This document shows positions 10,741 through 42,459 of a stretch of 64,000 nucleotides of DNA, in pieces; within the stretch, counting starts at the first letter, position 1, and each line of letters opens with the position of its first letter. This DNA comes from an uncultured virus (IMG/VR IMGVR_UViG_3300050821_004776) (lineage: Duplodnaviria; Heunggongvirae; Uroviricota; Caudoviricetes): the IMG/VR virus record IMGVR_UViG_3300050821_004776, one strand, 5' to 3'. A model generated the notes under the pieces. It was given only the letters and a program-made list of their open reading frames with translations. It was not told the DNA's origin and ran no database searches. A program made the position numbers and the translations under genes.

Positions 10741-12492
10741 GTGGCTCTTGAGAAGCTTCACGGTACCCAGGTCGTATCGTGGGCACCGCCATTGCCCCAG
10801 CGCGCCTTCCAGATACTCAGCGCGGGTGTTACGTCAGACAACACTAGCGTGGCAGGGCTCAGCACGGACGGCAAGCGCTACGGTTACTTCGTCCTCAGCA
10901 CGGTGCAGTGGGCCGTGCTCGAAGGCTTCCACACGCCCCCGGTAAGCCCCGGTGAGAAGTTCCAGATCTGGGAGTCATTCTCGCCCCTTGAGCCGTTCCT
11001 GTTCCCGCCGGCGTTCGCGGGAGGTGCCGCGCTCCCGGGGACGACGTCGCCCACCACGGCTACTGCGGCACCGGACCTGTTCAACGTCTACGGCATGACC
11101 CAGAACCGCGAGTCAGGGGGCGGTCAGGCGGTATACGACATCCTCGACGCGACCGTGCACTCCATCGCCGCCGTCCAGCAGTCGTCCTCAGGGTCCTGGA
11201 CGGTGTACTTCTCCCCGGTCACGACCGCGACCATCACCCAGGACTGCGGGCTCGTCACCAAGCCGGAGCCCTACAGCCCCCGCTACCTCGGGCAGATCGG
11301 GCACGTCTCGGGTGTCAATCCCGTCTGGACAATTCCGGGCGGTCCCTCCCAGCTCACCTGCCTGCTGGCGGTAGAGCCGGACTTCCGGACCGATGCCCTC
11401 AACCCCGGACGGATCATCACCGCGCACCGGGGCGGGAGCTGCATCTGGGAAGGGCAGCTCACCGAGCCCCAGCCCGCCGCTACCGGGTGGACGCTGACCG
11501 CTAACGGCGTCGGAACGTACGGCACGAACTACGGGGCATGGTGGCAGCCCGGAGCCGGGCCTACCGCCAAGTCCACCGGGTGGTTCCCTGACGGTCCCGT
11601 CGATTTCGCCATCGCGCGCGGCCTGCGCTGGGCCAACCACGGCATCGGCACCCCGGCGGGCATCTACACCGGCCCGACACAGGACCCCGGCTCGCTGACG
11701 ATCACGGACTTCATGAACCTGCTGTGCACGGGCGGTTCCCTGCTATGGGAGCTGGTACAGCCGACGAGCGCCGCGACGTGGCCGCCCGGACCCTGGCAGC
11801 TCGTCGTCCACCCGATGCCCACCGACCGGAACGGCAACCCGCTCGTCGCCGGGCCTGCGCAGAAGACCCAGATCTCGATCCTCCAGGGCGGCCGGTGGAA
11901 GCGCGTGGACATGCTCACCGCCCAGCCACGGCAGCCACCGGACCTGTTCCTGGTGAATACCTCACCGGTAGCGCGGACAATCACGGCCGACTACAACACG
12001 ATCATCCTGTACTACCAGAAGACAGCGGACAAGACCGCCACCAGCACCACGGCGGCCACGGCGGCCACGTACGGCACTACGTTCGTGGACAACCCCGGGT
12101 CGGTGGCCGCGCACGGGCGGCTGGAGTACTACCTGGACGTCACCAACGCCGGGGCCATGACCGCGCTTCAGGCACAGCAGATCGGGCTCAACGTCCTGAC
12201 CAAGTACATCCGGGCGAACTTCGCTAACGCGTTCTCGGTCATGCCCGGCCAGCTCCTCAATCCCGGGGGCTTCCCCGTCGATCTCGGGCTCAACTACGCG
12301 GGCATGGTGTGCGCCATCCAGGGGGTCAGCGCGGCCAGCGGCGGTGAGGTCGGCTTCGCCCCGCTGACCTTCCTGATCGGCACCTATTCCTATGACGATG
12401 ACACGCAGACCGCGACCGTAACGCCTTACCAGAACGCGCTGACTGATATCGCCTCGGTGGTCTCCGCGCTTTATCCGGGCAAATTCGCCTAG
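10741..12492 (+). CDS. Minor tail protein (583 aa)
   Basis: Last gene of tail operon; IWEG...LTANG segment resembles siphovirus minor tail proteins. Confidence 0.6.
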   Translation: MALEKLHGTQVVSWAPPLPQRAFQILSAGVTSDNTSVAGLSTDGKRYGYFVLSTVQWAVLEGFHTPPVSPGEKFQIWESFSPLEPFLFPPAFAGGAALPGTTSPTTATAAPDLFNVYGMTQNRESGGGQAVYDILDATVHSIAAVQQSSSGSWTVYFSPVTTATITQDCGLVTKPEPYSPRYLGQIGHVSGVNPVWTIPGGPSQLTCLLAVEPDFRTDALNPGRIITAHRGGSCIWEGQLTEPQPAATGWTLTANGVGTYGTNYGAWWQPGAGPTAKSTGWFPDGPVDFAIARGLRWANHGIGTPAGIYTGPTQDPGSLTITDFMNLLCTGGSLLWELVQPTSAATWPPGPWQLVVHPMPTDRNGNPLVAGPAQKTQISILQGGRWKRVDMLTAQPRQPPDLFLVNTSPVARTITADYNTIILYYQKTADKTATSTTAATAATYGTTFVDNPGSVAAHGRLEYYLDVTNAGAMTALQAQQIGLNVLTKYIRANFANAFSVMPGQLLNPGGFPVDLGLNYAGMVCAIQGVSAASGGEVGFAPLTFLIGTYSYDDDTQTATVTPYQNALTDIASVVSALYPGKFA

Positions 12493-12902
12493 GGGCGGCA
12501 CCCGTCACTGCGCTCCCAGAACAGCAGAGCCACATAGAACTTATACGTCGCTACGCGCGAAGGATTCTTAGCAGGATTAGCGGGCGCGGATACCGGAGTT
12601 TTCGTGAGCAATTCCAGGGCCTGGCACTCGTGCTGCACGACATGCTGGGTATACATCTGGGCAGCGGCGGCATTTGCCCGCACCTGGTTAGCGAGATCCA
12701 TTGTCTTGACGACGTTTATGCCGAGAATAATAGAGGTAGCGATAAATACGAGACAGAGAATAGCCAGGACGCGTACTTGCCACTTGCGGGTACGGTCTGC
12801 CTTGACTAGCGGCGCTATGAGTCTTTCCGCCACCGCGATGGTCTTAGCTTCTGACTCAGGGCCATCATGGTCCGGGAGGCCCAGCTTGCCGTCTTGGTTC
12901 AT
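12489..12902 (-). CDS. Hypothetical membrane protein
   Basis: One hydrophobic segment (VLAILCLVFIATSIILGI); 4-bp overlap with upstream gene. Confidence 0.65.
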   Translation of the reverse strand: MNQDGKLGLPDHDGPESEAKTIAVAERLIAPLVKADRTRKWQVRVLAILCLVFIATSIILGINVVKTMDLANQVRANAAAAQMYTQHVVQHECQALELLTKTPVSAPANPAKNPSRVATYKFYVALLFWERSDGCRP

Positions 12903-13468
12903 GAACGTTCCTGCTTCCTTCGGACACGGGACAGATCCATTGTGCTCAACAGGATGGCGGCGGCTGTAGGCTCCCCCGCGTGCACAGGGAAGCCAAGATC
13001 CTGCCCCGGCTCCCAGTTCCGGATCTGTACCAGGAAGCGGCGCAGGCTCAGCTCCTCATCTACCGTCAGCGTACCCTCCGTGAAGCTTTCGAGGAGGTCG
13101 TCTATCTCGGCGCGGGCGGGGTCAGGCTGGTGAAGGACGCGGGCCGCGTCGATCGCGATGGACTCAAGCGAGCGCCACAAGGGCTCAACCTTGGTGTTAA
13201 GGGTGCTGACCTGGTCTCTTAGCGGTTCCAGGGAACGGGAGATGGCCGCCTCCACCACAGTAGCCGTATGCGTTGTCTCAGCGTCGAGCTTAGCGTGAAG
13301 TGATGTAACATCGAGCTGAAGCGGAGTGAGCGCTTCCTTCAGCCGGCTGTCAATTTCCTCAATGCGCTTTTTACGAGCTGATTCAGTGTGGTTCTCACGG
13401 TAAAGAAACAAGGTCCCGCTCCCGCCGAGAAACGTACCGACCCCGAGGACAACAGACAGCACGTCCAC
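12899..13468 (-). CDS. Hypothetical protein with N-terminal membrane anchor and coiled coil
   Basis: Hydrophobic N-terminus followed by helical heptads. Confidence 0.65.
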   Translation of the reverse strand: MDVLSVVLGVGTFLGGSGTLFLYRENHTESARKKRIEEIDSRLKEALTPLQLDVTSLHAKLDAETTHTATVVEAAISRSLEPLRDQVSTLNTKVEPLWRSLESIAIDAARVLHQPDPARAEIDDLLESFTEGTLTVDEELSLRRFLVQIRNWEPGQDLGFPVHAGEPTAAAILLSTMDLSRVRRKQERS

Positions 13469-13541
13469 AAGGCCGCTCCTTACCCCGGGAACCAGTTATT
13501 CTCATCCCAGGGTACGGAGCGGGCCGCCTGTGCGCTAGTTC

Positions 13542-14201
13542 TCAGGCGCGGACGACCTTCACCGACTCGTCACTGCCGGGGAGATAGAGATTTACCCAGC
13601 CGTTCTCGATACGCAGGGTACGACCGCCGGTCAGCACGAAGCAGTCCGCCGGCCAGGAATTCCGTGTCACGGTCGCGGGGGTGTCTTCCGTGGCATGCGG
13701 GTACCTCCGCATCAGGTCGGCCTGCGCCGCGTCCACCCGGGCGGTCAGCTCTTCCCACTCCCCGCGCGTCCGGCGCGTCGCCTTCTGGTGCCGCTCGGCA
13801 TCCTGGGCGCGGATGCGGCGGCGGGCCTCGCGCAGCAGGCGGGCGGACAGCTCCGCGTAGGCACGGCCGAGAGCCAGGCACTCGCCGGTCACGCGATCGT
13901 GGTCATCGCCGCGCTCGCGCTTGCTGGCCCCGCTGCCGCCGAACACGCGCGTCACCTCGCCGTAGACACTGCCGCCGGCCGGCACCTGGCAGGACACCTT
14001 CGCGACGGCGGCGTCTCCCGTGACCATGACCTGCGCGCTCCCGGCCCGGTAGGCCGAGTCCGCATTCGGCGCGTACGGCGACGAGGCCGTCTGGAAGATC
14101 CCCTGGCCGGGGGAGGCGGAGTCGTATGCCAGCCCGCGCATCGCGGCGTCGGTCACGAACTCCCCGCCCTGCGGCAGTCGTTCCTTCTTCGTCTTGCTCA
14201 T
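13542..14201 (-). CDS. Hypothetical protein, possible DUF1876/dsRBD-fold domain
   Basis: GASKRERGDDHDRVTGECLALGRA resembles the DUF1876 motif. Confidence 0.5.
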   Translation of the reverse strand: MSKTKKERLPQGGEFVTDAAMRGLAYDSASPGQGIFQTASSPYAPNADSAYRAGSAQVMVTGDAAVAKVSCQVPAGGSVYGEVTRVFGGSGASKRERGDDHDRVTGECLALGRAYAELSARLLREARRRIRAQDAERHQKATRRTRGEWEELTARVDAAQADLMRRYPHATEDTPATVTRNSWPADCFVLTGGRTLRIENGWVNLYLPGSDESVKVVRA

Positions 14202-14491
14202 GCGGTGGTGTTACCTTCCTTCACGAATATTTTCGGGGTGCCGATGGGCTTGGCATCCCACTTCGGGTCGCGGAGAACGAGGAGGGTGTCTTCGTCCACG
14301 ATGATGTTGTCCAGGGGCAGGCCGGCCAGCTTGCGCATCGCGGACTTCCTGGCCGCCCCGCGCAGGTCCTGGGCACGGCCGATCGCCCGGCCCACCGCCT
14401 TCTTCAGCCTGCGGCGCTGCGCGGGGGTCTTGCGGGCCGCCTCGAAGCGCTCGGTGCGCGTCTCCAGGGACAGCGGCTGTGTCTGCGTCAT
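14198..14491 (-). CDS. Basic hypothetical protein
   Basis: Start taken at ATG 14491 (MTQTQP); ATGA overlap with next gene. Confidence 0.55.
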   Translation of the reverse strand: MTQTQPLSLETRTERFEAARKTPAQRRRLKKAVGRAIGRAQDLRGAARKSAMRKLAGLPLDNIIVDEDTLLVLRDPKWDAKPIGTPKIFVKEGNTTA

Positions 14492-14555
14492 GACCTGTGC
14501 AACACGAGCCCTTCCGCGCGCATTCCCGCTGGGTGGCAGGGATTGCACTATTCAC

Positions 14556-14675
14556 TGGCGGGCAGCGCACGCTCGTCGTAAGCGGCTCAGGCTGGCCTAG
14601 AGGCCAGCACCGCAAACCCCGGCCACCAGCACAGATACTGTCGGGATGTGCGACCCGCTGGGTAGAATGTCCGTT
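14556..14675 (+). ncRNA. Putative natural single-guide RNA (tracr paralogue + repeat 3' end + guide)
   Basis: 14556-14619 matches the - strand of 32652-32589 at 56/64 nt (first 30 nt identical), then a hairpin, then GGATGTGCGAC (14644-14654), the last 11 nt of the CRISPR repeat. Confidence 0.8.
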
Positions 14676-15218
14676 ATGGCACTGAATCTCCCGGACCTGG
14701 CTAAATTCGCGGCACGCCCGTTCCCGCAGGGGTATCCCGTTGAGGATCACATCACGCTGTACGCCCCCCAGGACAACCTGCACGGGGCGCTGGCCGCGTT
14801 CGTGGATTCCGTCACCACGTCGCTGGTGCTGGCCATGTACGGGTTTGACGACGACGCCGAGGCCACGGCCATCCTGCGCAAGCTCCAGGACCCGGGCATC
14901 TATGTCCTGCTGGTGCTGGATTCTTCTCAGGCCGCCGGCGTGCACGAGAAGAAACTACTACAGCTCATGAACTACCCGAGCAACTCCGTGGTGATCGGCC
15001 GGTCCGAGGAGAACGCGATCATGCACCTCAAGACCGGTGTCGCCGATGGCCTCTTCACCTTCGGGGGCTCGACCAACTGGAGCGCGTCCGGCGAGGGCAA
15101 GCAGGACAACGAACTCACCTTCAGCCGGCACCCGCTGATCGCCTTCCAGGCGCGCACCAAGATCGACCTGATCGCCGAGACGATCCGCACGAAGCAGCAG
15201 CGAGCCCCGGCGGCTTGA
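14676..15218 (+). CDS. Phospholipase D-family (Nuc-like, single HKD) nuclease
   Basis: HLKTGVAD (HxKxxxxD) and GSTNWS motifs; TAGAAT at 14663-14668, 7 nt before ATG 14676, suggests a leaderless start. Confidence 0.85.
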   Translation: MALNLPDLAKFAARPFPQGYPVEDHITLYAPQDNLHGALAAFVDSVTTSLVLAMYGFDDDAEATAILRKLQDPGIYVLLVLDSSQAAGVHEKKLLQLMNYPSNSVVIGRSEENAIMHLKTGVADGLFTFGGSTNWSASGEGKQDNELTFSRHPLIAFQARTKIDLIAETIRTKQQRAPAA

Positions 15219-15532
15219 TGGCGAGTATCAGGGGCCGGGGCCGGAGGCATACGCACCGGTACAAGAAACGCGCCTCTGACGGCTTTACGCCCTACATCGC
15301 CATCAAGACCTGCGCTGCCTGCGGCAAGCAGTGTTACCGGTCGCGTGACGAGGCCAGGCAGTCTGCTAAGATCAATCATCCCGGCCAGGTGATGCACGCT
15401 TACGAGTGCGAGGAGCCCAGCGGCCAGCGCTGGTGGCATCTCTCTTCTATTCCCGCCGGGAAACTCAAGCGACTGAGAGACCGTGAGGCAAATGGAAGAC
15501 GACCAGGACAAGAACGCGGGAACGCTGCCTGA
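15215..15532 (+). CDS. Small Cys/His-rich hypothetical protein
   Basis: CGKQCY...AYEC...WHLS pattern seen in small phage Zn-binding proteins. Confidence 0.55.
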   Translation: MMASIRGRGRRHTHRYKKRASDGFTPYIAIKTCAACGKQCYRSRDEARQSAKINHPGQVMHAYECEEPSGQRWWHLSSIPAGKLKRLRDREANGRRPGQERGNAA

Positions 15533-20045: not shown

Positions 20046-23000
20046 TCACGCACGCGCACAAGCGGGTAAAAATGCACGGCAGCCTGGAGTTCCGGGTCAC
20101 CTACGCGATCGAGACCCTGCCCTTCCGGCAGCACCCCTTCCGGCCGGCCGCCCAGTACCAGCCGACGCACCTGACGTTCACCCTGGCCAGCGCGAGCCCG
20201 GAGGACGGCAGGCTTCCCCGGTACAAGGATCTTCACGTCAGTCATATCGACATTCGCGGTCCCCGGATCAAGAAGGACGGGACGCCCGGGGACTTCACGG
20301 TCAGGGAAACCCTGTACCGCAGCAGCCGTGAGCCGTGGCCGCCCTGGGCCGAGGACATCGTCCTGAAGGCGATCGCCGAGCTGAAAGGGCTGGACAATGG
20401 CTGACGTAGCCGGCTGCGCCCCTGAGTGGTACCGCAAGCAGCAGGACGACCTGACGAGGCAGCACCAGGCCACGCGCCGGGCCGCCCGTGCGGATACCGA
20501 GAACATGCTCTGGCGGATGACCGCCGATCAGCGCACGATGTTCCTGAACCGGCTGATCGTGGCCGACCCGGAGCGGGCGCAGGCTATCGCGAAGAACGTG
20601 CTGAAATGATGACCTGGGCGCTGTACATCATGATCTACCAGTTCATCGCGCTCCAGGCCGCCCGGTACCTGTACCGGCACCGCGAGTGGAAACTGCCGCA
20701 CCTGAACGAGTTCCGCACGACGGTCTACACCTGGGAGAAGTCCGCCTGGATAGCCTTCGTGCTCGGCCAGGCCTGGCCCGCCGGAATCCTCCGGACCCTG
20801 GCCGGGCTGGGTGTGAAATCAGTTCACTGGTATATCACCGCTGAGAAGCTCGCCCTGCGGAAGCCGCCCGTGATCGACATCGAGAAGGCGGAAGCCGACC
20901 TGGCCAGGGCCGGCCTGGAGCTGGCGGCAGCACAGTCTCCCGGTGACGGGCAGGAGAAGCACATCCCGCCGCCGGACGTGACCGGAACCTTCAGCACCCC
21001 GCCCCGGACCTTCGGCTACACCGACGATGAGTGGGAGGCGGTGTTCTGCCCGACGTTCCCCCACCGGTCCTTCGGCCGCATGCGTTCTCTCCATGGCATC
21101 CCGCCGCCGGACGTGACCGGAACCTTCAGCACCCCGCCGCGCCAGACCGGGGATCGTGATGACGGCTAGCGATCGCCTCACGCCGCCGCCGGAAACTCCC
21201 GGGCCGCGCATTCCCACCGCCGCCGAACTCGACGCGCACTTCATGGTGAGCAACAGCGACGGGAAGCGCTGCGAGGTCATCTCCGCGCCCACAGGCGAGC
21301 CTGTCTGCACTCGCGACGCCGTCTACCGGGTGACGCTGGTCTACCCGGACACGCACGCGTGCGGAAACCGCACCGCAGAATGCGCCCTGTGCCTGGAACA
21401 CACCGAGGGCATCCAGCGTTACGACAAATACAACCTGCTTGTGTGCAAGGCATGCAGGGCATCGGTCACAAAGCTGATAATCGAGCCGCTTGGAGGACGA
21501 GCATGACAGACAGGGGCTTCGCCCGCGTATATCACGAACTGGGCTTGTTCGGCATCGCCTGGAAAGAGGTCCGCAGGCTCATGAACGAGGCCATGAGCCT
21601 GGCCAGCGCCGAGCACCAGATGGGAGCCAAGGGCCGTGTTCCCATTCGCGGCACCAAGCGCGTACTGGTCTACAACTCCGGGATCGACGGACTCGACGCC
21701 ACCTGGTCGATAGAGGACGAGAACCCCGAGGTCCACGTGGACTGGCGCATGACCGCCGCCGAATGGGAAGAGCTGCGCAGCGTTCTCATCGGCCACGGCG
21801 GCACATCCGCGTACGTGAACAGCCTCTACTTGTCAGGGAAGCTAGGCCCGCACGCGCCGGAGATGAAGCACTGATGCCGTGGTGGGGGTGGCTCGTTATC
21901 AGCCTCCTGGGCACGTCACTGACCGCCGTGCTGATCCTGGCCGCGTGGTTCCTGCACGACCTGTCAAAGGGGATGCGGGGATGAGCGCCGTGGCCGCGAC
22001 GCCTGACCGGGCGGTGTGCGCCCACTGCGACCTGCGGGACGCCGCCAGCGGCGAGCACCTCTGCATGGGCTTCCTGTTCGACTGGCTGGAGGACCTGGAC
22101 GGCGAGCACCGCATGCGCGAGTTCGGCGAGCTGATCGGGCTTATGGATGAGCTGGGCATCTGATGTACCAGCTTTTCTACAAGACAGGGGAATCGGCGAA
22201 CTCCGCACAGCACGCCACCGCCTTCCGCACCAGGGCGGAGCGCGCGGAGTTCGCGAAGGGTCCGGAGGTCTACTGGTACCATTTGCCGGAGGATGAGGAC
22301 TGGTGCCGCTGGACACGCGGCGGAGCCTGGCAGGCGACCGCTCGTCCCGGCCCGGCTGACGTAGTGCCCGAGCCCCCCGAGATCACGGAGGATGACCGCT
22401 GGTGAGCGCAGGCACGATCGAGACTGAGATCACGGAGCTGGCCGGCCTTGACCTGGAAAGCGCCCCGCCCTGCCAGATGCGGTGGACTCACCAGGTCACG
22501 CACCGCAGTTTCTGCTGCGGCAAGCCTAGCGTGATACGACTTCACATACGCTGCAAGAGGTGCGGGTTCTCGGCTTACCGGTTCTACTGCCGCGAGTGCT
22601 GGGAGGACATCAGGAAAGGTGACGCGCGCTGCGGGAGCGAGTCCTGCGATAGCTCGGAATTCACCTACAGGGAGAGCTGATGAAAAGCCGGGAACTGATT
22701 ATGCGGTACTTCAAGGCCCGCGCGCTGTCATGGCTGACTGTCAGCACGATTCCCGTCATGATCCCGGGTACTGACAGCCCCGTGGTCCTCGCTGTCTACC
22801 ACAACGGGAAGTACATCAGTCCTGAGGTTGTTCATATTCCTAACGACCCTCGCGACCTGTGGGGGCCGGACGGCCCGATCAGCAAGGAGCCCCCGCCAGA
22901 CGAGGGCGGAGAGGATACACCGCATGAGCATTAAAGACGAGGCCGGCGCGGTCGTGCAGGCGACAGCCGAGGCCGCCGCCAGCCTGTACGCGGCGTTCAT

Positions 23001-23399
23001 GGAGACGCCCGCGCAGGTCAACGGCGCTACGGTTTTCTTTACCCCTGACCAGGCGTTCGAGCTGACTAAGACCGTGATCTGGGAAGCCCTCAGAGACCGG
23101 GGCCTGACGTGAGCACCGCCCTCGCCGAGCCGGAGACCGAAGACCTGGAGAAGCTCCTGGGCAAACCGCCGGACTGCCAGCTATGGCTCATAAAGCGCGG
23201 CGTATTCTGCGGCAAGCCCTCGCTGCATCACGTGAAGCTCACCTGCCCGTGCGGAAATCAGGGGCTGTTCTTCGTGTGCGAGGATCACCTGACGGAGGTA
23301 CGCGGCGGCAGTGTCCGGTGCACGGGGTGCTCGCACTACGGCAGGCTGTGCATGGACCTGGTGCTGGACCCCGCCGGCTGGACGTACGTGATCCTGTGA
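20042..23399 (+). other. Run of about 12 small hypothetical genes, several Cys-rich (21156-21506, 22402-22680, 23109-23399) and a membrane protein (20606-21169)
   Basis: Contiguous ORFs with ATGA/GTGA overlaps. Confidence 0.6.
20962..21138 (+). repeat. 42-bp exact direct repeat (20962-21003, 21097-21138) enclosing a 34-bp copy of primase-helicase sequence
   Basis: CATCCCGCCGCCGGACGTGACCGGAACCTTCAGCACCCCGCC twice; 21041-21074 is identical to 33128-33161. Confidence 0.9.
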
Positions 23400-23608
23400 G
23401 CAGCAGAACCGAAGCCGTGCAACTGGCCAGGCAGCTCCGGAACGAGGGCTTCGACGTTGAACTCACCCGGGGCAGCGGCCACTGGGAGGTGCGCCGCAAC
23501 GGCAGGCGCGTGACCACGTTCGCGAACACTCCCGGTGATCACCGCTGGAAGCGGAACGCCCTTCAGTACATACGCAGGTGGAAGCGCTCGAACGGGGTGA
23601 AGACATGA
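23396..23608 (+). CDS. HicA-like small protein
   Basis: 70 aa; LRNEGFDVELTRGSGHW...TP pattern of HicA-fold proteins. Confidence 0.55.
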   Translation: MSSRTEAVQLARQLRNEGFDVELTRGSGHWEVRRNGRRVTTFANTPGDHRWKRNALQYIRRWKRSNGVKT

Positions 23609-23711
23609 TCCTTGGCGTCCTGGCGATGGCCGGCGGCGTGCTGCTGTTTACCGCGATCGCGGCCGGCATCATGTTCAGCGAGAGGCACGGCACGGACCAC
23701 CGTGATGACGA

Positions 23712-25544
23712 CTAGACCTTCAGCGGCTGGCCGCCGAGCAGCTCGTTGACGATCCTGGGGTCGCGCACCAGGTCGGACAGGTGCCGGGCCTTGTCCTTCA
23801 GCAGCAGCCGGACACGGCTCTCGACGGTATCGGTCGCGACGATGTCGGTCACGTGGACCTGCTTGGCGTTGCGCACGTCGTCGGCGCGGGCCTCAGCCTG
23901 GTGGGCCTGCCAGTACGCCCACGGGCGCTCCAGGAAGACCACGTGGTCGCCCCGGTCAAGGGTCAGGCCGACGCCCCCGGCTGTCACATTGGCGCACAGC
24001 AGGTCCAGCCCGCCGCCCTGGAAGGCCCGCCGCACCATCGTGCGCTGCTTAGCGGTCTGGCCGCCGACGATGAGCCCGACGCGGTAGCCCTCCTGCTGCG
24101 CCCGCACCGCCGCGAGCCTGACAAGCTGGGTGTGCGGGCTGAAGGCGATCAGCGGCGAGCCCCGGCTGTCGTCCATCATCGTCATAAGCTCGTCCACCTT
24201 CCAGGACGGCTCGCGCATGGTGACATGAGTCCTGGGCACCATCTCGCCGAACGTCTCGCTGGTCTCCTTCGTGTCCAGCTCCATGACGATCTCGACGTCG
24301 CACGCCGAGGACGCGAGCTGGGTGAGGCGCTGGAGCTGCGCGAGGATGGTCATGACCTCAAGCGGCTCATCGGTGTCCGGGATGTGCGCGATCATGTCCT
24401 TCGCCATCTCGTCGTAGGCGGCGCGGTAGGCGTGCGGGATGGTGACGACGCGGGTGGAGTAGGACTTAGGCGGGAGATCCTCATTGACGTCGGCCATCGC
24501 CACGCGGCGCAGGGACCCCTGGATGAGGACGTAGAACTCCTCCCGGTTGGCGGTGGAGATGCCATCGACCTTGTCCGGGCCGTAATCGGCGGAGCTGCGG
24601 TCGGTGTAGCGGGCCTTGTACCGGTCAGGGTCGGGGAAGCTCCTGATGTCCATGACGTTCATCGCGTGGTAGAAGCCGCCGATGTCCCGGGTGATGGGCG
24701 TCCCGCTCGCCAGGAGCGTGAACTCGGCGATACGCGCGCACTGCATGGCCGCCGTGGACTGCTTGCTCTGGGCGCACAGGCAGTGGGCCTCGTCCAGGGC
24801 GAGCGTCTTCGGGACGATGAACTCCAGCAACGGCGGCAGCTCGTCGTGCTCGTGCTTCATGTCCAGGCGGAAGGTGTTCCAGCTCATGACGTAGATGTTG
24901 TACCTGCTGGACAGGTTGCGCCGTCGCGTTCCCCGGTAGGCGGTCACCGGCCAGTCCGGGAAGGCGGTTTCCAGCTCCTCCAGCCACGGGTCCACGACCG
25001 ACGCCGGGCATACCACCACGGCCGGCCAGGGATTCTCCCCGCGTGCCTCCAGCTCGGCCAGGGTCAGCAGCACCGTGCGAGTTTTCCCGGTCCGCATGTC
25101 ATCGCCGAAGAAGAACCGCTTGTTGACCGCGCCTGCGTAGGCCCCGGACACCTGGTGGGGCATCGGGGTCCAGGACAGCGAGGACAGGTCGAACTTCAGC
25201 TCGCCGTTCTCGTCGTGGCGGCGGCAGAACTCCCCGAAGATCCAGGACTTCAGTCCTTCGTCCGGGAGCCAGTAGAAGCCGCGCTCCTCCATGAGCTTGG
25301 AGAGCTGGGTGACCATGGCCCAGGTGAGCGGGACCCTGACGTCGCCGGAATTGTCCTTGGTCCTGGCCGGCAGCGCCGTGAGATGCTTCAGCGCCGTGCC
25401 CACCTCAGCGATCTGCCAGTCCGCGCCGTCCACGTGCAGCCGGATGTTCCGGGGGTGCGCGCAGTTCCCTGTGGGGTGGTAGCCCAGGCACTCGATCCGG
25501 GCGGTCAGGGCAGCCGTGGCGTAACGGTCATACCCCTGGCTCAC
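23712..25544 (-). CDS. SNF2-family (SF2) helicase
   Basis: DDMRTGKT, VVCPASV, DEAH, SGTP, GGVGLTL and QAEAR motifs. Confidence 0.92.
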   Translation of the reverse strand: MSQGYDRYATAALTARIECLGYHPTGNCAHPRNIRLHVDGADWQIAEVGTALKHLTALPARTKDNSGDVRVPLTWAMVTQLSKLMEERGFYWLPDEGLKSWIFGEFCRRHDENGELKFDLSSLSWTPMPHQVSGAYAGAVNKRFFFGDDMRTGKTRTVLLTLAELEARGENPWPAVVVCPASVVDPWLEELETAFPDWPVTAYRGTRRRNLSSRYNIYVMSWNTFRLDMKHEHDELPPLLEFIVPKTLALDEAHCLCAQSKQSTAAMQCARIAEFTLLASGTPITRDIGGFYHAMNVMDIRSFPDPDRYKARYTDRSSADYGPDKVDGISTANREEFYVLIQGSLRRVAMADVNEDLPPKSYSTRVVTIPHAYRAAYDEMAKDMIAHIPDTDEPLEVMTILAQLQRLTQLASSACDVEIVMELDTKETSETFGEMVPRTHVTMREPSWKVDELMTMMDDSRGSPLIAFSPHTQLVRLAAVRAQQEGYRVGLIVGGQTAKQRTMVRRAFQGGGLDLLCANVTAGGVGLTLDRGDHVVFLERPWAYWQAHQAEARADDVRNAKQVHVTDIVATDTVESRVRLLLKDKARHLSDLVRDPRIVNELLGGQPLKV

Positions 25545-25931
25545 TCCTCACCCCGGATGCGCATGAGCTTCTCTTCCAGCCGGGCCGTGACCCTGGCGTT
25601 ATCCGCGCACGAGGCAGCGCACGCCTCCGTCACGCCGCTGATCGCGGACGTCAGGCGGGCGCACAGGCCCTCCAGGTCCCGGACGCGGCTTTCGAGCCGG
25701 GCGATCTTCAGCTCCAGGGTCTCTACCCGGACCGTGACGGCCTGGGGGAACGCGGGCGCTTTCACTGCCCTGAACGCCGGATTGTCCTGGCACCCGCAAT
25801 GACCGCACATACTGTGAACTCCCTTCACACTTCGGCGTGCTGATGGGTGAGGTCCCGCCGGGAGCTTTCCTGCCGCCCTCGGGGGAAGGGGAAGCGGGGC
25901 TCGCTCCCGGCGGGACCTCAGCTCGGGGGTG

Positions 25932-27086
25932 TTACTGCGGCGGCTGCCCGCCCGCGAGCCTGGCCAGCAGCGCGGCCTTCTCCGGATCGGCTACTCCCGG
26001 GACCGGCGGGACACCGTTCGGGGCACCAGGAGCCTGCGTACCAGGCGCTGGCGGAGGGGCATAGCCCTGGGGTCCGGGAACTCCTGGCGCGGCACCGTTA
26101 GGAGGCGGCGGGGGCGGAGCCTGGAACTGTACCTGGGGCGGGGTGGCGTACTGGGCAGTAGCCGGGGGTGCGGGCGGCGCAGTAACCGGTGCCGGCACAG
26201 CAGGAGGGGCCTGGACCGCCGCCTGGTAGTAAGCGGCGTTCGGGTCAGGTGCCTGCGGAGCGTATCCCGGCGATGAAGCACCGGCCGGCGGCGGAACAGG
26301 AGAGGGGGCAGCCGCAGGTGCTGGCGGCGCAGCGTAGGTCTGCTGCGGTGCCGAGGGTGCCGGCGCTGGTGAAGTAGGGGGGACCTGCTCAGGGGCGTCT
26401 TCCTGAAGCTCCCTGCCGCCGGGCGTGTACTGGAAGTTGTACAGCTTGGTCGGGTTGTAGCCGGGGCGGCCCGCCGGGCGCTCGCCCGCGCTGACCATGT
26501 AGAAGGTCGCGCCGCCGAGGTGACGGTTGGCGATGGCCTTAGCGGGATCGGTGATGCCGGCGGCGGCCATGGCGTTCTTGAAGGCGTCGCTCGACGCGCC
26601 CTTCAGGTAGACCGACGCCATGCCCTCGGTGAAGATCCCCGGATGGCTGCCGTCCGAGCTGGCCAGGACCGTGCACGGGAGGATGAGGACGAACTTCGGC
26701 TTGCCGGTCCCCTTGAAGTTCTGGGGGACTCCGTCGGAATTGGTCTGCTGCTGGACGTCGGCCGGGGTGAGGTCCCGGGCAACCTGGAGCTGGAGCCAGT
26801 GACCCTGGGGGCGCTGCGCGGTGAAGAACTTGGTCACCGACGCTCCTCCCCCGGTGGGCTGATCCAGGAAGTCCTCCAGGGTGCCACGGGCAAGCACAGG
26901 GGCCTGGGGTGCCGCAGGCTGCTGCTGGTAGGGCTGTTGCGGAGGATAGTAGGCAGGCTGCTGATAGCCAGGAGGAGGTTGCTGGTAGCCAGGAGAAGGG
27001 GGCGCGTACCCCGGCTGCGGATAGCCCGGGGCCTGCTGCGGCGGGTAAGGCTGCTGCGGAGGGTAAGGCTGCTGCGGATACGTCAT
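25932..27086 (-). CDS. Pro/Gln-rich protein, probable ssDNA-binding protein
   Basis: Globular core (GKPKFVL...NPTKLY) flanked by low-complexity arms; lies between exonuclease and helicase. Confidence 0.5.
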   Translation of the reverse strand: MTYPQQPYPPQQPYPPQQAPGYPQPGYAPPSPGYQQPPPGYQQPAYYPPQQPYQQQPAAPQAPVLARGTLEDFLDQPTGGGASVTKFFTAQRPQGHWLQLQVARDLTPADVQQQTNSDGVPQNFKGTGKPKFVLILPCTVLASSDGSHPGIFTEGMASVYLKGASSDAFKNAMAAAGITDPAKAIANRHLGGATFYMVSAGERPAGRPGYNPTKLYNFQYTPGGRELQEDAPEQVPPTSPAPAPSAPQQTYAAPPAPAAAPSPVPPPAGASSPGYAPQAPDPNAAYYQAAVQAPPAVPAPVTAPPAPPATAQYATPPQVQFQAPPPPPPNGAAPGVPGPQGYAPPPAPGTQAPGAPNGVPPVPGVADPEKAALLARLAGGQPPQ

Positions 27087-27151
27087 CGACAGTCCTAAGA
27101 AGAAGAGGATGAGCCCTGTGCTTGCGCGATCGCCTGGTCAGGGGTAAATCT

Positions 27152-27238
27152 CAGTTGCCAGTTCACAGTTGTCAGTTGTCAGTTGCTGCCCGATTTGACC
27201 GCGCCCGCCCACTATAACCCGGTTCGCGCCGCTGTCGA
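27152..27238 (-). promoter_or_regulatory. Promoter (TCGACA-N16-TATAGT) and five heptamer repeats in the leader of the SSB-like gene
   Basis: -35 at 27238-27233 and -10 at 27216-27211; CAGTT at 27152, 27159, 27166, 27173 and 27180. Confidence 0.6.
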
Positions 27239-27253
27239 GCCCTCGCCGGGGTG

Positions 27254-29173
27254 TTACCTCAGGTCACGTTTCAGGCTCGTCCCGGGGCAGCCGGCCTTGG
27301 TCCCCTCGGTGCTGGCGGCGGCATTCCAGAAGGGGCACCACTGGCAGTCATCGTCACTCGGCGTCATCGGCACCTCCCAGAACGTGACGCGCCCTTGTGC
27401 CATGAGCTTCGCCAGGTCTTCCCGCGCCCGGGTCTTGTCCAGGTACTCCAGGGCGAGGCGCAGGTCGTCGTTAGTGATCTCGTGCTCCCAGACGTACATG
27501 TCATCCAGCGTGGACTTGGTGCGCGGCCAGGAGATCAGCACCATCCGCCGGACGTCGAAGCCCTCGTTCATGTAGCCGATCGCGTAGAAGAGGAGCTGGA
27601 GGAAGTAGTGCAGCGGCGGCCCGTCCCGCCTCAGCCGCGTCCGGATCGCCTCGGACTGCCCCTTGTGGTCATCGACCGCGAACCACAGGGTGTCGTAGAG
27701 GTCGGCGGTCCCGGGGTGCGGCTGATCAGCTCCGGGGTCGGGGCAGACACGGCGCTCCGTGAACCAGCGGCCCGGGTTGCCGCCCTGGGCGGCGTCCCAG
27801 GCGAACGCCTGCTCAAGGAACGCGTGGATGGCCGTCCCGACGACCGAAGCCCAGGCGTAGGTGTCCTTGATGGCTCCCGTCGATTCGCCGAACGAGACCC
27901 CGGCCATCTTCCCCACGACCTGCCGGTCACAATTCCCTGTCATCAGGTCATCCGCCAGGCCGAACGCCCCTGTGCCTTCCACCGTGGCACAATACACCAG
28001 TTCCCGCCGCCCTGTGCGCTCTACGGACGCCACTTTCCAGTGCAAGTCGCGTTCCCCGTTCTGGCTAGCGGCTTCCGCACGACGGCGGTGCTCTTCGGTC
28101 AGGAAGAACCACAAGGGAAGATCCGCCCTGCGAAGGGTCAGCTTGTGCAAGGGCGTAGCTTCCGTCGCCAGGGTCTTTCCGCTGATGCCGACGCGCATGC
28201 TCGTTGTGATCAGCCCGTAACCGATACCGCAAACGGCAGCCACGCTGCGCACGAACTCCAGATTTTCGCGGGAAGCGGACGAGATAGAGCAGTGCCCGTC
28301 ATCCTCGCTGACTGTTCCGTCCGCCGCAAAATACCCGGCAAGCCAGGACACGAGAAACGCGCTGGATTCTCCGATGGGAGGCAATTCTTTCCAGAACTTC
28401 GGAAGGGGCCTGATCTCGTGCGAGAGCTGGACGCCCCTGTCCGGCTCGTCAGCCCGGGACTTCACTTCCCTGACTGCCGACGCCGGAAAGAATTTGAGCA
28501 TCGCGCTGTCTTTGCCGTTGGCATAGATGCTGAGAACGCCTGCCTGCACCCGGTTGCTCCCCTGCCGGTTACCGAGACGTGAACCGTCGCCGAAAACAAA
28601 CCCCTGGGCGGCAGCCACATCCATGAGGGTCGCACTGCGCGGCATAGCACGGCGGAGCTGGGTAAGGCGCTGTCCGGGACGAAGTTCCCGGGTCGTAAGA
28701 CGCTGCTGCTTCTTCTGCTTGCCCGACCAGTACGACCGGAACCACGTGTGCTCTGGCGTCGCGTAAATGACCTTCTCACTGCCGCTTCGGGTGAGCGTCA
28801 CCTTCAGCAGCTCTTGTTCGCCGAAGCACGTAACGGGAACACGCCTGAATTTGCCCCAGCGCTTGCGCACATCGCTGCCCGCATACAGCATGGGAACGAG
28901 CAGCTCGGCTTCACCTGTCTTCGCGAGGTCCCGGATAGGCTTCAGTCCTTCCCGGGTCACCACCTCCGTATCGCCCGACAGGCACGCGTGTCCCAGCTCG
29001 GAGGGGCCGAGGTGGCGCTGGACGTTGCGGGGCAGGCGCGCGGCGTAGCGCATCACCACATCCCGCAGCTCGGTGGCGTAGCGCTGAGCCCACAGCGTGT
29101 TGCCGCTGGAGAGGTAGACAGGCGGCCCGTGATAGGTGACCTGATCCGCGAACGCTGCGAGCTTGTCCGGCAT
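27254..29173 (-). CDS. Cas4-like PD-(D/E)xK exonuclease interrupted by an intein
   Basis: Spliced extein reads PSELGHA|CDRQ...GTAIH...ADLYD...DHK...QLLFY...CQWCPF...C (four Cys, Fe-S type). Confidence 0.85.
   Translation of the reverse strand: MPDKLAAFADQVTYHGPPVYLSSGNTLWAQRYATELRDVVMRYAARLPRNVQRHLGPSELGHACLSGDTEVVTREGLKPIRDLAKTGEAELLVPMLYAGSDVRKRWGKFRRVPVTCFGEQELLKVTLTRSGSEKVIYATPEHTWFRSYWSGKQKKQQRLTTRELRPGQRLTQLRRAMPRSATLMDVAAAQGFVFGDGSRLGNRQGSNRVQAGVLSIYANGKDSAMLKFFPASAVREVKSRADEPDRGVQLSHEIRPLPKFWKELPPIGESSAFLVSWLAGYFAADGTVSEDDGHCSISSASRENLEFVRSVAAVCGIGYGLITTSMRVGISGKTLATEATPLHKLTLRRADLPLWFFLTEEHRRRAEAASQNGERDLHWKVASVERTGRRELVYCATVEGTGAFGLADDLMTGNCDRQVVGKMAGVSFGESTGAIKDTYAWASVVGTAIHAFLEQAFAWDAAQGGNPGRWFTERRVCPDPGADQPHPGTADLYDTLWFAVDDHKGQSEAIRTRLRRDGPPLHYFLQLLFYAIGYMNEGFDVRRMVLISWPRTKSTLDDMYVWEHEITNDDLRLALEYLDKTRAREDLAKLMAQGRVTFWEVPMTPSDDDCQWCPFWNAAASTEGTKAGCPGTSLKRDLR
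27932..28984 (-). mobile_element. Intein (351 aa) with LAGLIDADG homing endonuclease
   Basis: Starts CLSGDT; ATPEH block B; GFVFGDGS and WLAGYFAADGT motifs; ends LMTGN before +1 Cys. Confidence 0.92.
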
Positions 29174-29225
29174 GCCTGTGACCCTACCTTACTGCGGGCA
29201 CGGGTTCCGCAACTGTGAACTCACT

Positions 29226-30655
29226 TCACGCCGGCGGTCGCATGAGGCCGACGACGAGCTTGAGCGCCTGGTCTTCGGTAAATCCCGCTTGCATGTACGC
29301 CTTGAACATCTCGTGCGCGGAGATCGCGGCCTCCACTAGCTGGCTGAACGGCTCGGACTGATCGTCACCCATGATGAGCCCCCCGCTTCCCGGCCGCCAG
29401 CGCCTTCCAGTCCGCTCGCGGTGCCGGGCTGTCCGCCTCGTCGTGTGCCCGCGCGTAATCCGCGTCCCCGAGGTACCACAGGCGGCATCCGTGCCCGTCT
29501 TCGCGGAAGCGGATGCCCTCATGCGGCTCGAACGTGAATGACCAGCCCGTGCACTTCGGCGCGCCCTCGTAGTCGATGCGGTCGGCGTACTTGCGCATCA
29601 GGGCGGCGAGACGGCGCTTCACGGCTCCCGCTTGCGGATGATCACCCATGATGAGCCCCCCGCTTGCGGATGATCACGCCGGCCACGCCCAGGAGCCTCC
29701 GCAGCGCCTGCACGTCGGAGAGGGTAACGACATGGCCTACGGTCATGCCGCCCTCGTCCGGGTCCAGGTGCTGGCCGGCGAGGCACAGGAGGTGCAGGGC
29801 CGTATCGCTCATGACAAGCGTGACCGGGTGCAGCCCCTCGTCTTCCGGCGGCCCTGGCGGGGACTGTGAACTCACCTCACGTTCCCGCGCGAGCCACAGC
29901 CCGAGGATCTCCGTGACCTCTTCCGCGATCTTCCGGCCCTGCTCGATGATCTCCGTGTACTCACCCACGGCGCGCTCCTCCCTTGTTCTCGCGCAGCTCC
30001 CACGACGCCTTGACGGGCTTGAGCCAGCGCTGGTACGTCTCGGGGTCTTCCGCCGCCATGGTCTTGCTGTCCACGCGCCAGCCCCCCTTCAGCGTCATCG
30101 TATACGCCGGGTACCTGCCGTGAGGATCGGCCGTGATGTCGAAGGCGTCCGGGAGATCCGCCGGGTCCGGGAACACCGACAGCAGCCACGCCTTGATCGC
30201 GGCCTTCAGCTCCTCGTGCGCTTCCTTCGCCACGGACTCGGCGTCGTCCGCCTTCTTGTTCGATATCAGGAGCTGCTCCAGCTTGCCGCCGGACTCCGGC
30301 TCGATCTTGGCGCGCTTCCGGGCAGGCTGGGGGACCGGCGGTGCCGGCTGGGGAACTGGTTCGGTCACGGCAGCCTCTCTTCCTGGCTGATCATGCGCCA
30401 GGCACACAGCTTGCCGCGCATGCGGGTATCCGGCTGGGCCGGGACGATCTCCACGACGGTGTCCGGTGACAGCCCCGCCCGCGCGCACTCCCGCACGAAC
30501 CCGGCCAGCTCGCCCACGGTCGGCGTCATCTTCCACGTCAGGAACACCTCCGCCCGGACCTGCGACCACACCGTCTCATCGTCGTGGACGTCGAAGCGGT
30601 CGGGTATGTAGCCAGGATCGTCAGGCGGGGGCTCAGGGGTGTAACCGCAGTTCAC
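29226..30655 (-). other. Five small hypothetical genes (29226-29372, 29365-29649, 29642-29968, 29961-30368, 30365-30655)
   Basis: Overlapping ORFs; GTG at 30655 is preceded by AAGGAG. Confidence 0.6.
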
Positions 30656-30702
30656 AGGGGACTCCTTAGGTACGGGCCGGGGGATGTAGCCAGGATCGTC
30701 AG

Positions 30703-31095
30703 GTCGCACATCCTGTCTCTCACCACAGGCATTGTCACATCGTCAGCATGCTGTACCCCGGCGTCTTCTTGCTGTCGCACATCCTGTCTCTCACCACGGG
30801 CATTGTCACGCCCTTGAGACGCCGCAGCTCACGCAGTGCCTTGGCGTCGCACATCCTGTCTCTCACCACGGGCATTGTCACCATTGTCACGGCCGGACCG
30901 AGGCGCTCCGGGAAGCGTCGCACATCCTGTCTCTCACCACGGGCATTGTCACATGTACGCCGGGTTGCCGTTCGCCTGCTGGACCGCGTCGCACATCCTG
31001 TCTCTCACCACGGGCATTGTCACCTGAAAATCAGGTGGGGCGCATGCCGGGAACACACGGTCGCACATCCTGTCTCTCACCACGGGCATTGTCAC
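30703..31095 (-). CRISPR. CRISPR array: 6 x 36-bp repeats (- strand GTGACAATGCCCGTGGTGAGAGACAGGATGTGCGAC), 5 spacers of 35-36 bp
   Basis: Repeats start at 30703, 30774, 30846, 30917, 30988 and 31060; spacers 35/36/35/35/36 bp, all different; single variant repeat at 30703 is the trailer end. Confidence 0.98.
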
Positions 31096-31240
31096 GGCTC
31101 GCTTATTTTACCGGCCTTGGCCTGCGGATACGTCCCCGCTTGCGAGCGGCGGGGCGGCCCCAGGCTTCCGGGATCAGGTTATCCCCCCTCTTGTATTCGA
31201 GTTCTGGCTCCCTGCCTGCCTGCGAGCGCTTCCCGGAATT
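31096..31240 (-). promoter_or_regulatory. Probable CRISPR leader/promoter overlapping the nuclease 3' end
   Basis: TAAAAT at 31110-31105, 9 nt before the first repeat; CGCTCGCA occurs twice upstream. Confidence 0.55.
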
Positions 31241-32548: not shown

Positions 32549-32559
32549 CGCATCCCTTC

Positions 32560-32653
32560 ATTCCCGACAATGCCCATGGTGAGAGACAGGGTTCGCGGTG
32601 CAGGCCCGGAGGCCAGTCTTAACCGCTTACGACGAGCGTGCGCTGCCCGCCAT
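32560..32653 (-). ncRNA. tracrRNA-like RNA with 25-nt anti-repeat (32566-32590)
   Basis: CCTGTCTCTCACCATGGGCATTGTC is complementary to the crRNA repeat (24 Watson-Crick pairs + 1 G-U); extended -10 TGTTACAGT at 32667-32659. Confidence 0.88.
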
Positions 32654-32682
32654 CGGCTACTGTAACACGCTCTTCGCGGGAT

Positions 32683-34971: not shown

Positions 34972-35007
34972 GAGACTGACGGTACCACGGGGATGGGATA
35001 CCAGCGA

Positions 35008-35175
35008 GAATAGGGGGGTCAAGGGGGGGTCAGAATAGGGGGGTCAAGGGGGGTCAAAGGGGGGTCAAACAGGAGCAGCGCCAACTGGGTCAAGGGGGGG
35101 TCAACACGGCACCCTTTTAAGGGGGCCGTGAACCCCCTGACCCTTGACCCCCCGCTGTTGACCTGACCCCCCCTG
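35008..35175. repeat. Candidate replication origin: iteron-like GGGTCA repeats converging on a palindrome
   Basis: Seven GGGTCA copies, then CACGGC-ACCCTTTTAAGGGG-GCCGTG (35105-35130), then four TGACC(C) copies; lies between divergent primase and polymerase genes. Confidence 0.7.
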
Positions 35176-42422: not shown

Positions 42423-42459
42423 CCCGCAGGCCACGGTCTTGCCGGCTCCTGCGGGAGTT

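Follow-up and report, generated by a model that had tools for sequence, protein, structure and literature searches.

The RNA-guided nucleases that most resemble the one described here use guides in two formats. The omega-RNA (or reRNA) of a TnpB from an IS200/IS605 or IS607 element is a single RNA that has a scaffold, a pseudoknot 5' of the guide, and the guide at its 3' end. It is cut from the nuclease's own transcript, and its guide is the DNA that flanks the element, with the element-free allele as the target. Some non-autonomous derivatives of IS605 consist of an omega-RNA only, and IS200/IS605 elements are not known to make a target duplication. A pseudoknot next to the guide is found in Cas12f guides as well as in TnpB guides. 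Other nucleases of this kind use a guide that is split into a CRISPR RNA (crRNA) plus a trans-activating crRNA (tracrRNA); the transposon-CRISPR intermediates (TranC) reportedly use both reRNA and crRNA. Here, we describe a 64,000-nucleotide (nt) stretch of DNA (the window) from an uncultured phage of the Caudoviricetes (IMG/VR record IMGVR_UViG_3300050821_004776). It encodes a TnpB-like nuclease with a CRISPR array and a tracrRNA (copy B), and far from these it contains a second, altered copy of the tracrRNA (copy A). We put at about even odds (roughly 0.5) the idea that copy A encodes a natural single-guide RNA that works with this nuclease, arose by secondary fusion, and is aimed at genomes without the insert, for exclusion or homing.

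Split-guide TranC systems have already been published (Jin et al. 2025, Cell 188:6283). The premise of the first-pass annotation of this DNA, that single guides belong to TnpB and split guides to Cas12f and Cas12n, is therefore out of date. The Cas12n nucleases (type V-N, or V-U4) depend on a tracrRNA and have a pseudoknot beside the guide (PMC12216341), as we propose for the phage system. That paper describes a core of stem 1, stem 2, and pseudoknot as conserved across TnpB, Cas12n, and Cas12f, and nucleotides -4 to -2 of the RdCas12n single guide as pairing with the 5' region, which lengthens stem 1. Cas9 has a natural single guide as well: tracr-L of the S. pyogenes type II-A system (Workman et al. 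2021) has an 11-bp match to a promoter, according to 10.1101/2023.03.03.530964. In the same text, stand-alone crRNA-like RNAs or mini-arrays (scaRNA, CreA, and others) are described as widespread and as sometimes carried by phages. Natural single guides, TranC intermediates, and the targeting of empty sites by omega-RNAs are already known. Among the titles that our literature searches listed, none concerned a phage whose type V or TnpB-like nuclease is accompanied by an unlinked, re-fused tracrRNA-crRNA gene, which is not proof of absence.

Copy A resembles an omega-RNA in its single-RNA layout, in having the empty site as its guide, and in having a partner protein with the TnpB fold. It differs in lying far from the nuclease gene instead of at the 3' end of that gene, in its short scaffold, in being flanked by a 9-10-bp duplication, and in that the phage's nuclease additionally has a tracrRNA and an array of 6 repeats. 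We found no match to the TnpA, Cas1, Cas2, or Cas4 families, and no Y1 or serine transposase, among the 48 open reading frames (ORFs) of the window that were scanned (the public contig that carries the nuclease is 118 kb). With no transposase among these ORFs and with the duplication, copy A does not look like an IS200/IS605 or IS607 element or a non-autonomous derivative of one. The phage system has what defines a TranC: a TnpB-like, TnpB-sized nuclease, a short array adjoining it, a guide split into tracrRNA and crRNA, and no adaptation genes. TranCs reportedly also have single and split formats in one protein lineage. Unlike in TranC, the single format is here unlinked, apparently re-fused, and inserted elsewhere in the phage genome, and the tracrRNA lies upstream of the nuclease. 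We liken the nuclease to TranC by these features; LaTranC matches it weakly by sequence (E 0.38) and also matches it by fold (E 1.6e-12).

RdCas12n (PDB 9J09), a Cas12n, is compact and is the closest solved structure by sequence, and the C-terminal tail of the phage nuclease is likewise disordered; the Foldseek matches listed do not include 9J09. Cas12n tracrRNAs overlap the 3' tail of the nuclease ORF, whereas here the sole anti-repeat is upstream of the nuclease, and a duplex scan found no anti-repeat in the 3' tail of the ORF, from the last catalytic Asp to the array. The protospacer-adjacent motif (PAM) of Cas12n is A-rich and 5'. Like tracr-L, copy A naturally joins a tracrRNA to a repeat-like segment and a guide, and it has a short partial match at a putative promoter (9 nt here). 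But tracr-L is a longer isoform of the tracrRNA within the cas locus of a Cas9 system, whereas copy A is a paralog with a gene of its own, distant from the locus of a TnpB-like type V system, and its guide matches the empty site of relatives over the full length. Like the crRNA-like RNAs, copy A has a repeat-derived guide outside of an array, in a mobile element. Those RNAs are repeat or repeat-spacer units without a fused tracrRNA scaffold; a solitary repeat at 42458-42486 is of that kind and copy A is not.

Copy A and copy B are paralogs. The first-pass annotation aligned 14556-14619 (plus strand) to 32652-32589 (minus strand) without gaps at 56 of 64 positions, and this is borne out (55 of 63 positions from 14557 onward, plus T14556, which matches T32652). 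The ungapped homology extends further, with 72 identities over 98 positions. The two copies do not differ in their first 29 nt, which contain stem 1 and the pseudoknot strand; this exact 29-mer (GGCGGGCAGCGCACGCTCGTCGTAAGCGG) occurs twice in the window, with 0 expected from 100 shuffles. When we searched the window with a covariance model of the two copies and with filters turned off, only copies A and B matched (115.9 and 110.4 bits), and the next score was 15.7 bits (E 0.11). We also considered a third copy of the scaffold in the 3' end of the nuclease ORF, and rejected it: the alignment is unconvincing and the model reaches at most 15.7 bits anywhere in the gene. Similarly, we do not extend the homology of the two copies to a TCCCGC about 30 nt upstream, as identity is at background beyond about 14 nt.

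Copy A has the anatomy of a fused guide. Its GGCC-N4-GGCC stem is retained with a changed loop (TAGA in copy A, TCCG in copy B). Where copy B has CCTGTC, the start of its 25-nt anti-repeat, copy A has CCCGGC (14618-14623), which is complementary to GTCGGG (14640-14645) in copy A itself. The resulting cis hairpin has 6 bp that close a 16-nt loop. The GTCGGG arm and the A after it (TGTCGGGA) are identical, and at the same distance, in both copies. Next comes the exact 3' end of the array's repeat; the first-pass annotation gave it as ATGTGCGAC, and it is in fact 11 nt (GGATGTGCGAC, 14644-14654). This 11-mer occurs 7 times in the window, in the 6 array repeats and in copy A, with 0.13 occurrences expected. 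Just as was claimed, the 5' CGCAC of copy A (14566-14570) is complementary to the 3' GTGCG (14648-14652). Copy A is thus a scaffold homologous to the cognate tracrRNA, joined to 11 nt of repeat just before a guide, as in a single guide. By our reading of the alignment, the 3' junction runs as tracrRNA through GTCGGGA and then as repeat from TGTGCGAC, with a shared GGA as microhomology.

An anti-repeat, which defines a tracrRNA, is present in copy B and has been lost from copy A. Copy A retains 14 of the 25 anti-repeat positions, and its pairing with the repeat has an energy of -24.6 kcal/mol, as compared to -58.8 kcal/mol for copy B in a duplex scan of both strands of the window, so copy A cannot serve as the array's tracrRNA. 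The anti-repeat of copy B is the only strong partner of the repeat in the window besides the complement of the array and the complement of the solitary repeat at 42.4 kb.

The pattern of pairing in copy A is our main argument that selection acts, or acted until recently, on the RNA. We counted pairs on the two-sequence alignment of copies A and B against a proposed structure of three stems and a pseudoknot. All 29 of the proposed pairs form in copy A. Copy B misses 3 stem pairs and 4 of the 5 pseudoknot pairs in cis; the latter shortfall is expected of an RNA that acts in trans. If the 3' partners are slid by 1-3 columns, pairing drops from 88% to 31-40%. The two copies differ at 4 paired stem positions (columns 35, 50, 64, and 66), and copy A is paired at all 4; the remaining differences are in loops, in linkers, and in the former anti-repeat. 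Neutral decay of copy A would be expected to give the reverse. When the pseudoknot strands are constrained to be single stranded, the minimum-energy fold of copy A is exactly the proposed three stems, at -38.1 kcal/mol (-39.3 kcal/mol without the constraint). As for the pseudoknot, CGCAC and GUGCG form 5 of 5 pairs in copy A and all of the array repeats have the same GUGCG, with the proviso that just two sequences are compared and that an alternative pairing exists. By analogy, copy A might be viewed as a miniature of the single-guide layout of RdCas12n.

Comparison with a related phage (L030) reveals an empty site. L030 encodes a PLD-like protein that is 72% identical to the one just downstream of copy A, and it is syntenic on both sides of the site, over 11880-15480 of the window. 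In L030, ATTCCCGGCGGGT is joined directly to AGAATGTCCGTTATG, with an upstream context of ...GATGATTCCCGGCGGGT. The window instead reads ATTC-CCGCTGGGT-(22 nt + 98-nt scaffold)-CCGCTGGGT-AGAATGTCCGTTATG. Judging from these sequences, the copy A module is an insertion of 129 bp that is flanked by a direct duplication of 9 bp (or 10 bp with the preceding C), and it is derived relative to L030. It lies within a divergent intergenic region of 184 nt; in L030, the start codons are about 54 nt apart. CCGCTGGGT occurs just twice in the window on either strand (14526-14534 and 14655-14663), and among 20,000 random positions in the window, a 9-mer recurs within the 200 nt upstream 1.06% of the time. 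Over 14318-14935, the window is matched without any difference by a DNA contig from a third sample, and the joints listed for two DNA runs include none that skips the 129 bp. If the length of the array's spacers (35-36 nt) is taken as a guide to its length, the guide of copy A runs through a -10-like TAGAAT (14663-14668) and the start codon of the PLD-like gene (14676). It matches the uninterrupted site of L030 except at guide positions 4-5, and the window contains no other match to it of 12 nt or more.

How might the fused guide work? We propose that a copy of the tracrRNA, along with the promoter-proximal 14 nt, was joined to a CRISPR repeat's final 8-11 nt. The 6-bp cis hairpin would substitute for the long trans duplex of repeat and anti-repeat, and the GUGCG of the repeat would keep pairing with CGCAC, which the loop of stem 1 contains, to form a pseudoknot immediately 5' of the guide. 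Once the 129-bp module sat inside the former 54-nt divergent promoter region, its guide, which in type V and TnpB systems comes after the scaffold, would be the uninterrupted site, reading CCGCUGGGUAGAAUGUCCGU... The RNA would be transcribed from a presumed promoter at 14535-14556 and loaded by the nuclease, and the ribonucleoprotein could then recognize, and presumably cleave, insert-free relatives, in which ATTC directly precedes CCGCTGGGTAGAATGTCCGT. The phage's own genome would be spared: it has just 9 matching nt after ATTC, and its full match comes after the repeat end GCGAC, the non-target flank by which every array spacer is also protected. Because ATTC with a full match is found only in insert-free genomes, the fused guide would tell empty alleles from occupied ones. 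Co-infecting relatives would be excluded, or the cassette would home via recombinational repair. The logic would be as in TnpB omega-RNAs.

If this is correct, then a single TnpB-like nuclease would have guides of both formats within one genome (a tracrRNA with an array, and an unlinked fused guide), and an insertion polymorphism would reveal what the single guide is aimed at. It would bear on how type V guides split from, or re-fuse into, transposon-type RNAs and on whether phages use such nucleases against other phages. It would also provide a naturally minimized scaffold of 98 nt for a nuclease of 481 amino acids (aa). More specifically, copy A could be a guide-only homing cassette: 129 bp that bear a promoter, use a nuclease encoded elsewhere in the phage to cut the empty allele of co-infecting relatives, and are then copied into these by repair. 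We rather doubt this. If true, it would be a minimal natural "gene drive" among phages, and split CRISPR guides could revert in nature to single guides like omega-RNAs.

The first-pass annotation saw in copy A a fused guide, and its description of the parts (the tracrRNA scaffold, the cis hairpin, the repeat's 3' end with the pseudoknot strand, and the position of the guide) has held up. It went on to view the phage as a snapshot of the transition between omega-RNAs and split guides, which now seems weaker than a secondary re-fusion. We favor the latter because copy A is derived at its site, the loop of its cis hairpin is homologous to the anti-repeat (14 of 25 positions), and the 3' junction has the look of a recombination product. 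That the guide equals the empty site was not part of the first-pass annotation. Alternatively, an ancestral single guide may have been copied later.

There are several points against a functional single guide. For any insertion whatsoever, the sequence that follows the insert will equal the empty site; this is meaningful only if the RNA is made and if the left flank is a PAM, and it is why we hold our reading at about 0.5. The choice of ATTC as a candidate PAM (or target-adjacent motif) is a guess, because no credible protospacer for any of the array's spacers turned up in INPHARED, IMG/VR, or the viral records that we searched. The empty site was seen in just one relative, L030, which differs from the guide at positions 4-5. 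The covariance model found no second genome with the system among related and other fetched viral records (0 of 48). As to structure, the fold energy of copy A is ordinary (-39.3 kcal/mol, z = -0.83, with 36 of 200 shuffles equally stable), and no pair has changed on both sides, so compensatory covariation is nil in a comparison of two sequences. GUGCG also has an alternative partner, CGCA at 14611-14614, which is used in the minimum-energy fold.

Transcription is another concern. Scans of 14100-15300 for consensus sigma-70 promoters and for terminators gave 0 and 0. A consensus sigma-70 scan reports no promoter for the region of the tracrRNA (copy B) either. By our reading, -10-like hexamers lie 6-8 nt before the first G of each scaffold (CACTAT at 14546-14551 for copy A, TACAGT for copy B), but the sequence of copy A that aligns to the TACAGT is TGCACT. 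RNA contigs from two metatranscriptome runs, from two studies, cover the nuclease locus: a contig of run X5 (32283-32643) includes the first 265 nt of the nuclease ORF and reaches through the tracrRNA up to a point 8 nt short of the predicted 5' end, and a contig of run X6 covers 32427-32577. DNA carry-over is possible for both of these contigs. No contig of either run lies in 14328-14991, around copy A, which is a weak negative because the contigs are of low depth and the libraries were not made for small RNAs. We also note that the contig of run X5 (depth 3.85, a single contig) has G for T (plus strand) at 32557, in the ribosome-binding region of the nuclease, which may be a strain variant or an error.

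Some of these points would be expected if copy A were a relic of illegitimate recombination between a copy of the tracrRNA and a repeat-spacer unit, perhaps integrated via homology of a spacer to its target in the promoter region of the PLD-like gene, and without a working guide (or without one any longer). The ordinary fold energy, the missing consensus promoter, and the absence of an RNA contig over copy A all fit with this. So do signs of repeat-mediated rearrangement elsewhere in the window: the end of spacer 3, the 8-nt duplication of CTGACGAT, and the truncated solitary repeat at 42458-42486. We can also speculate that the phage's Ku protein might promote end-joining insertions such as that of copy A. 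Yet decay predicts mismatches in the stems, and with 29 of 29 pairs, copy A is better paired than the working tracrRNA. All 4 of the differences at paired stem positions favor copy A, and the differences are concentrated in loops and in the anti-repeat, which is useless to a single guide, while the 29 nt with stem 1 and the pseudoknot strand are unchanged. We consider a relic to be unlikely, though well worth keeping in mind. A functional RNA could instead be a regulatory single guide, akin to tracr-L or the crRNA-like RNAs, that binds its own DNA without cleavage via the 9-nt seed at 14526-14534 and represses its own promoter, the divergent operon that starts from 14491, or both. The occupied allele does keep a partial match with its ATTC flank, 22 nt upstream of the scaffold and inside the divergent promoter region, and partial matches are what known regulatory guides use. 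However, a repeat of 9-10 bp is more simply explained as a target-site duplication or as a microhomology junction of the insertion, and 9 bp is short of the 11-bp duplex of tracr-L (as given in 10.1101/2023.03.03.530964). Also, ATTC as a PAM is a guess, and nothing ties the flanking genes to the CRISPR system (the 97-aa gene belongs to no family). A regulatory guide thus strikes us as improbable.

We give even less credence to the idea that both copies are cis-acting 5' leaders, of the PLD-like mRNA and of the nuclease mRNA. Copy A would then tie the expression or processing of the PLD-like gene to the nuclease, or it would be an antisense 5' untranslated region of the divergent gene. It is true that both copies stop 21-30 nt before a start codon with no terminator in between, and that one RNA contig runs from the tracrRNA into the nuclease ORF (32643 to 32283). 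Also, by our reading, the divergent -10-like elements of L030 overlap (TAGAAT/ATTCTA), so that the insert would separate the minus-strand gene from its old promoter. But a leader leaves both the exact 11-nt repeat end, with its pseudoknot strand, and the loss of the anti-repeat unexplained, and the roles of leader and guide are compatible. The coordinates of the various features are in Table 1.

Table 1. Coordinates of the features discussed, within the 64,000-nt window; columns are those of the alignment of copies A and B.
Feature	Position (strand)	Remarks
Copy A, fused guide scaffold, 98 nt	14557-14654 (+)	Paralog of tracrRNA copy B, 16.4 kb from nuclease gene
Stem 1 of copy A	14557-14563 with 14571-14577	Columns 1-7 with 15-21; CGCAC in loop
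Stem 2 of copy A	14582-14585 with 14610-14613; 14591-14597 with 14602-14608	Columns 26-29 with 54-57; columns 35-41 with 46-52
Hairpin 3 (cis) of copy A	14618-14623 with 14640-14645	Columns 62-67 with 84-89
Pseudoknot of copy A	14566-14570 with 14648-14652	CGCAC (columns 10-14) with GUGCG (columns 92-96)
Left flank	14522-14534 (+)	ATTC then CCGCTGGGT, the upstream copy of the duplication; 9-nt seed match to guide
Left arm of module	14535-14556 (+)	First 22 inserted nt; proximal 14 nt like upstream of tracrRNA (8/14 identical)
Guide position	14655-14690 (+)	CCGCTGGGTAGAATGTCCGTTATGG...; array spacers of 35-36 nt taken as guide to length
Divergent 97-aa gene	14198-14491 (-)	No family; start conserved with L030 (M-[ST]-Q-T-...-P-L)
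PLD-like (PLDc_2) gene	14676-15218 (+)	Directly downstream of module
CRISPR array	30703-31095 (-)	6 repeats of 36 nt (GTGACAATGCCCGTGGTGAGAGACAGGATGTGCGAC on minus strand), 5 spacers of 35-36 nt
TnpB/Cas12-type RNA-guided nuclease, 481 aa	31103-32548 (-)	From Pfam, alignment, and predicted fold
tracrRNA (copy B)	32554-32651 (-)	Scaffold, then 25-nt anti-repeat (32566-32590); directly upstream of nuclease start codon
Primase/helicase	32683-35022	Phage gene

The nuclease is of the TnpB-sized, array-associated kind, like TranC or the small type V nucleases, and its active site is intact. The RuvC triad (D226/E330/D421) is invariant in alignments of 5 and of 32 sequences, and the cysteines of the CxxC...CxxC zinc finger (C393, C396, C411, and C414) are invariant in the alignment of 32. 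It matches the Pfam family Cas12f1-like_TNB (PF07282, E 3e-15), and its score against OrfB_IS605 (PF01385) is slightly under the cut-off (29.8 bits vs. 30.5). The predicted fold has a mean pLDDT (predicted local distance difference test) score of 82.6, with a disordered tail at residues 445-481. Its Foldseek matches are to TnpB of ISDra2 (8h1j, E 5.1e-17) and also to TnpB of ISFba1, several Cas12f, and LaTranC. Of the solved chains, the nearest in sequence is 9J09 (E 3.3e-20 over residues 183-434), which two papers name as RdCas12n (one of these is PMC12216341).

The nuclease has few close relatives. In a collection of 5.8 billion proteins, the only close homologs among the 120 matches listed were P0002 and P0003 (56-58% identity). 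The others listed were at most 52% identical, mostly 30-45% over about half of the query, and those with names are TnpBs, several of them from actinobacteria. One search of IMG/VR gave 2 distant C-terminal matches and another gave none. A scan of JGI metagenomes found just the same phage (the public fragment L007), and GTDB genomes gave 22 distant TnpBs from Ktedonobacteria (24-39% identity). All 50 of the records found in INPHARED are ordinary TnpBs; the best of them, in Saccharomonospora phage PIS 136, belongs to a regular IS605 that also has TnpA. Searches for the RNAs and their targets gave little as well. IMG/VR contains no match to an exact 24-mer from the scaffold, to the first 20 nt of the guide, or to exact 22-mers from spacer 4 or spacer 5. 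A 19-mer that is common to the guide region and L030 occurs in L030's own contig only. The array has no protospacer match in INPHARED, and when it was compared to 5 and then to 42 viral records, no exact match exceeded 16 nt. No Rfam family reaches its gathering score anywhere in the window.

On the minus strand, the order of the CRISPR-type locus is tracrRNA, nuclease, and array. Just 3' of the anti-repeat, copy B reads GGGAATGAAGGGATGCGATG (32546-32566, minus strand). Within it, GGGATGCGAT, which overlaps the nuclease's ribosome-binding site and start codon, is faintly like the repeat end GGATGTGCGAC if 2 nt are taken to be deleted; it may be a remnant of a single-guide ancestor, or it may be due to chance. 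The array has some odd features of its own. Its last repeat (in the region 30703-30773, minus strand) is bordered by an 8-nt direct duplication, as CTGACGAT ends spacer 5 and also opens the downstream sequence. If this repeat is left out, then spacer 5 is in frame with the downstream gene (30365-30709). Spacer 3 (30882-30916, minus strand) terminates in the 9 nt with which the repeat begins (GTGACAATG). Insertion of repeats or recombination, and not Cas1-Cas2 adaptation, may be how the array grew. Also, in 30605-30702 (minus strand), the 20 nt after the last repeat reappear 78 nt downstream (19 of 20 identical), corresponding to a repeated PDDPGYIP motif in the ORF at 30365-30709.

The solitary repeat at 42458-42486 (plus strand) is the repeat's last 29 nt, except that it reads GTGTG where the repeat reads GTGCG. 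Located between convergent genes and preceded by a terminator-like hairpin, it abuts the stop codon of an ORF at 42487-43329 (minus strand). Because it still pairs with the tracrRNA (-44.9 kcal/mol), it is conceivable that it could give an orphan crRNA, antisense to the 3' end of that ORF. We noticed that its guide would share 8 nt with the 5' coding region of the nuclease, and dismissed this as chance, as the 8-mer is found 4 times in the window.

Next to copy A, the start of the PLD-like gene at 14676 is supported because most of its homologs match from query residues 1-4. A homolog is encoded in 45 of the 45 IMG/VR loci that were fetched with this protein. As for the rest of the window, it is 65% G+C, and its phage genes also include a family A DNA polymerase, an SNF2 helicase, Ku, a transglycosylase, endolysin-like genes, and a glycine-rich protein of 2159 aa. 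The Ku homolog is at 46264-47091 (minus strand; PF02735, E 6.7e-32). No tRNA was found in the whole window. The remote relatives of the phage's proteins are in phages of Gordonia, Rhodococcus, and Corynebacterium (for the primase, about 33% identity across a quarter of the protein). Two public sequences, G001 and L007, are fragments of the same phage, and L007 is identical to 21105-35063 of the window. The sequencing runs that contain the phage are soil metagenomes.

We made a few other observations about the window. G-rich tandem units (AGAATAGGGGGGTCAAGGGGGG) at 35007-35063 lie exactly at the ends of G001 and L007, so this is probably a break point of the assembly. A stretch of about 35 nt (27151-27186) has a depth of 118-122 in two DNA runs and of 23.8 and 3.9 in two RNA runs, as compared to a depth of about 1-5 in other places. 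Loose ends are numerous there, and the stretch is probably one that is conserved in many organisms. The ORF that overlaps this region (27254-29173, minus strand, 639 aa) matches LAGLIDADG_3 and may contain an intein or a homing endonuclease. Finally, there is a direct repeat of 84 nt (54318-54401 and 54560-54643, 96% identical), and a family of three 71-nt copies that are 65-89% identical (61998-62068, 62523-62593, and 63493-63563).

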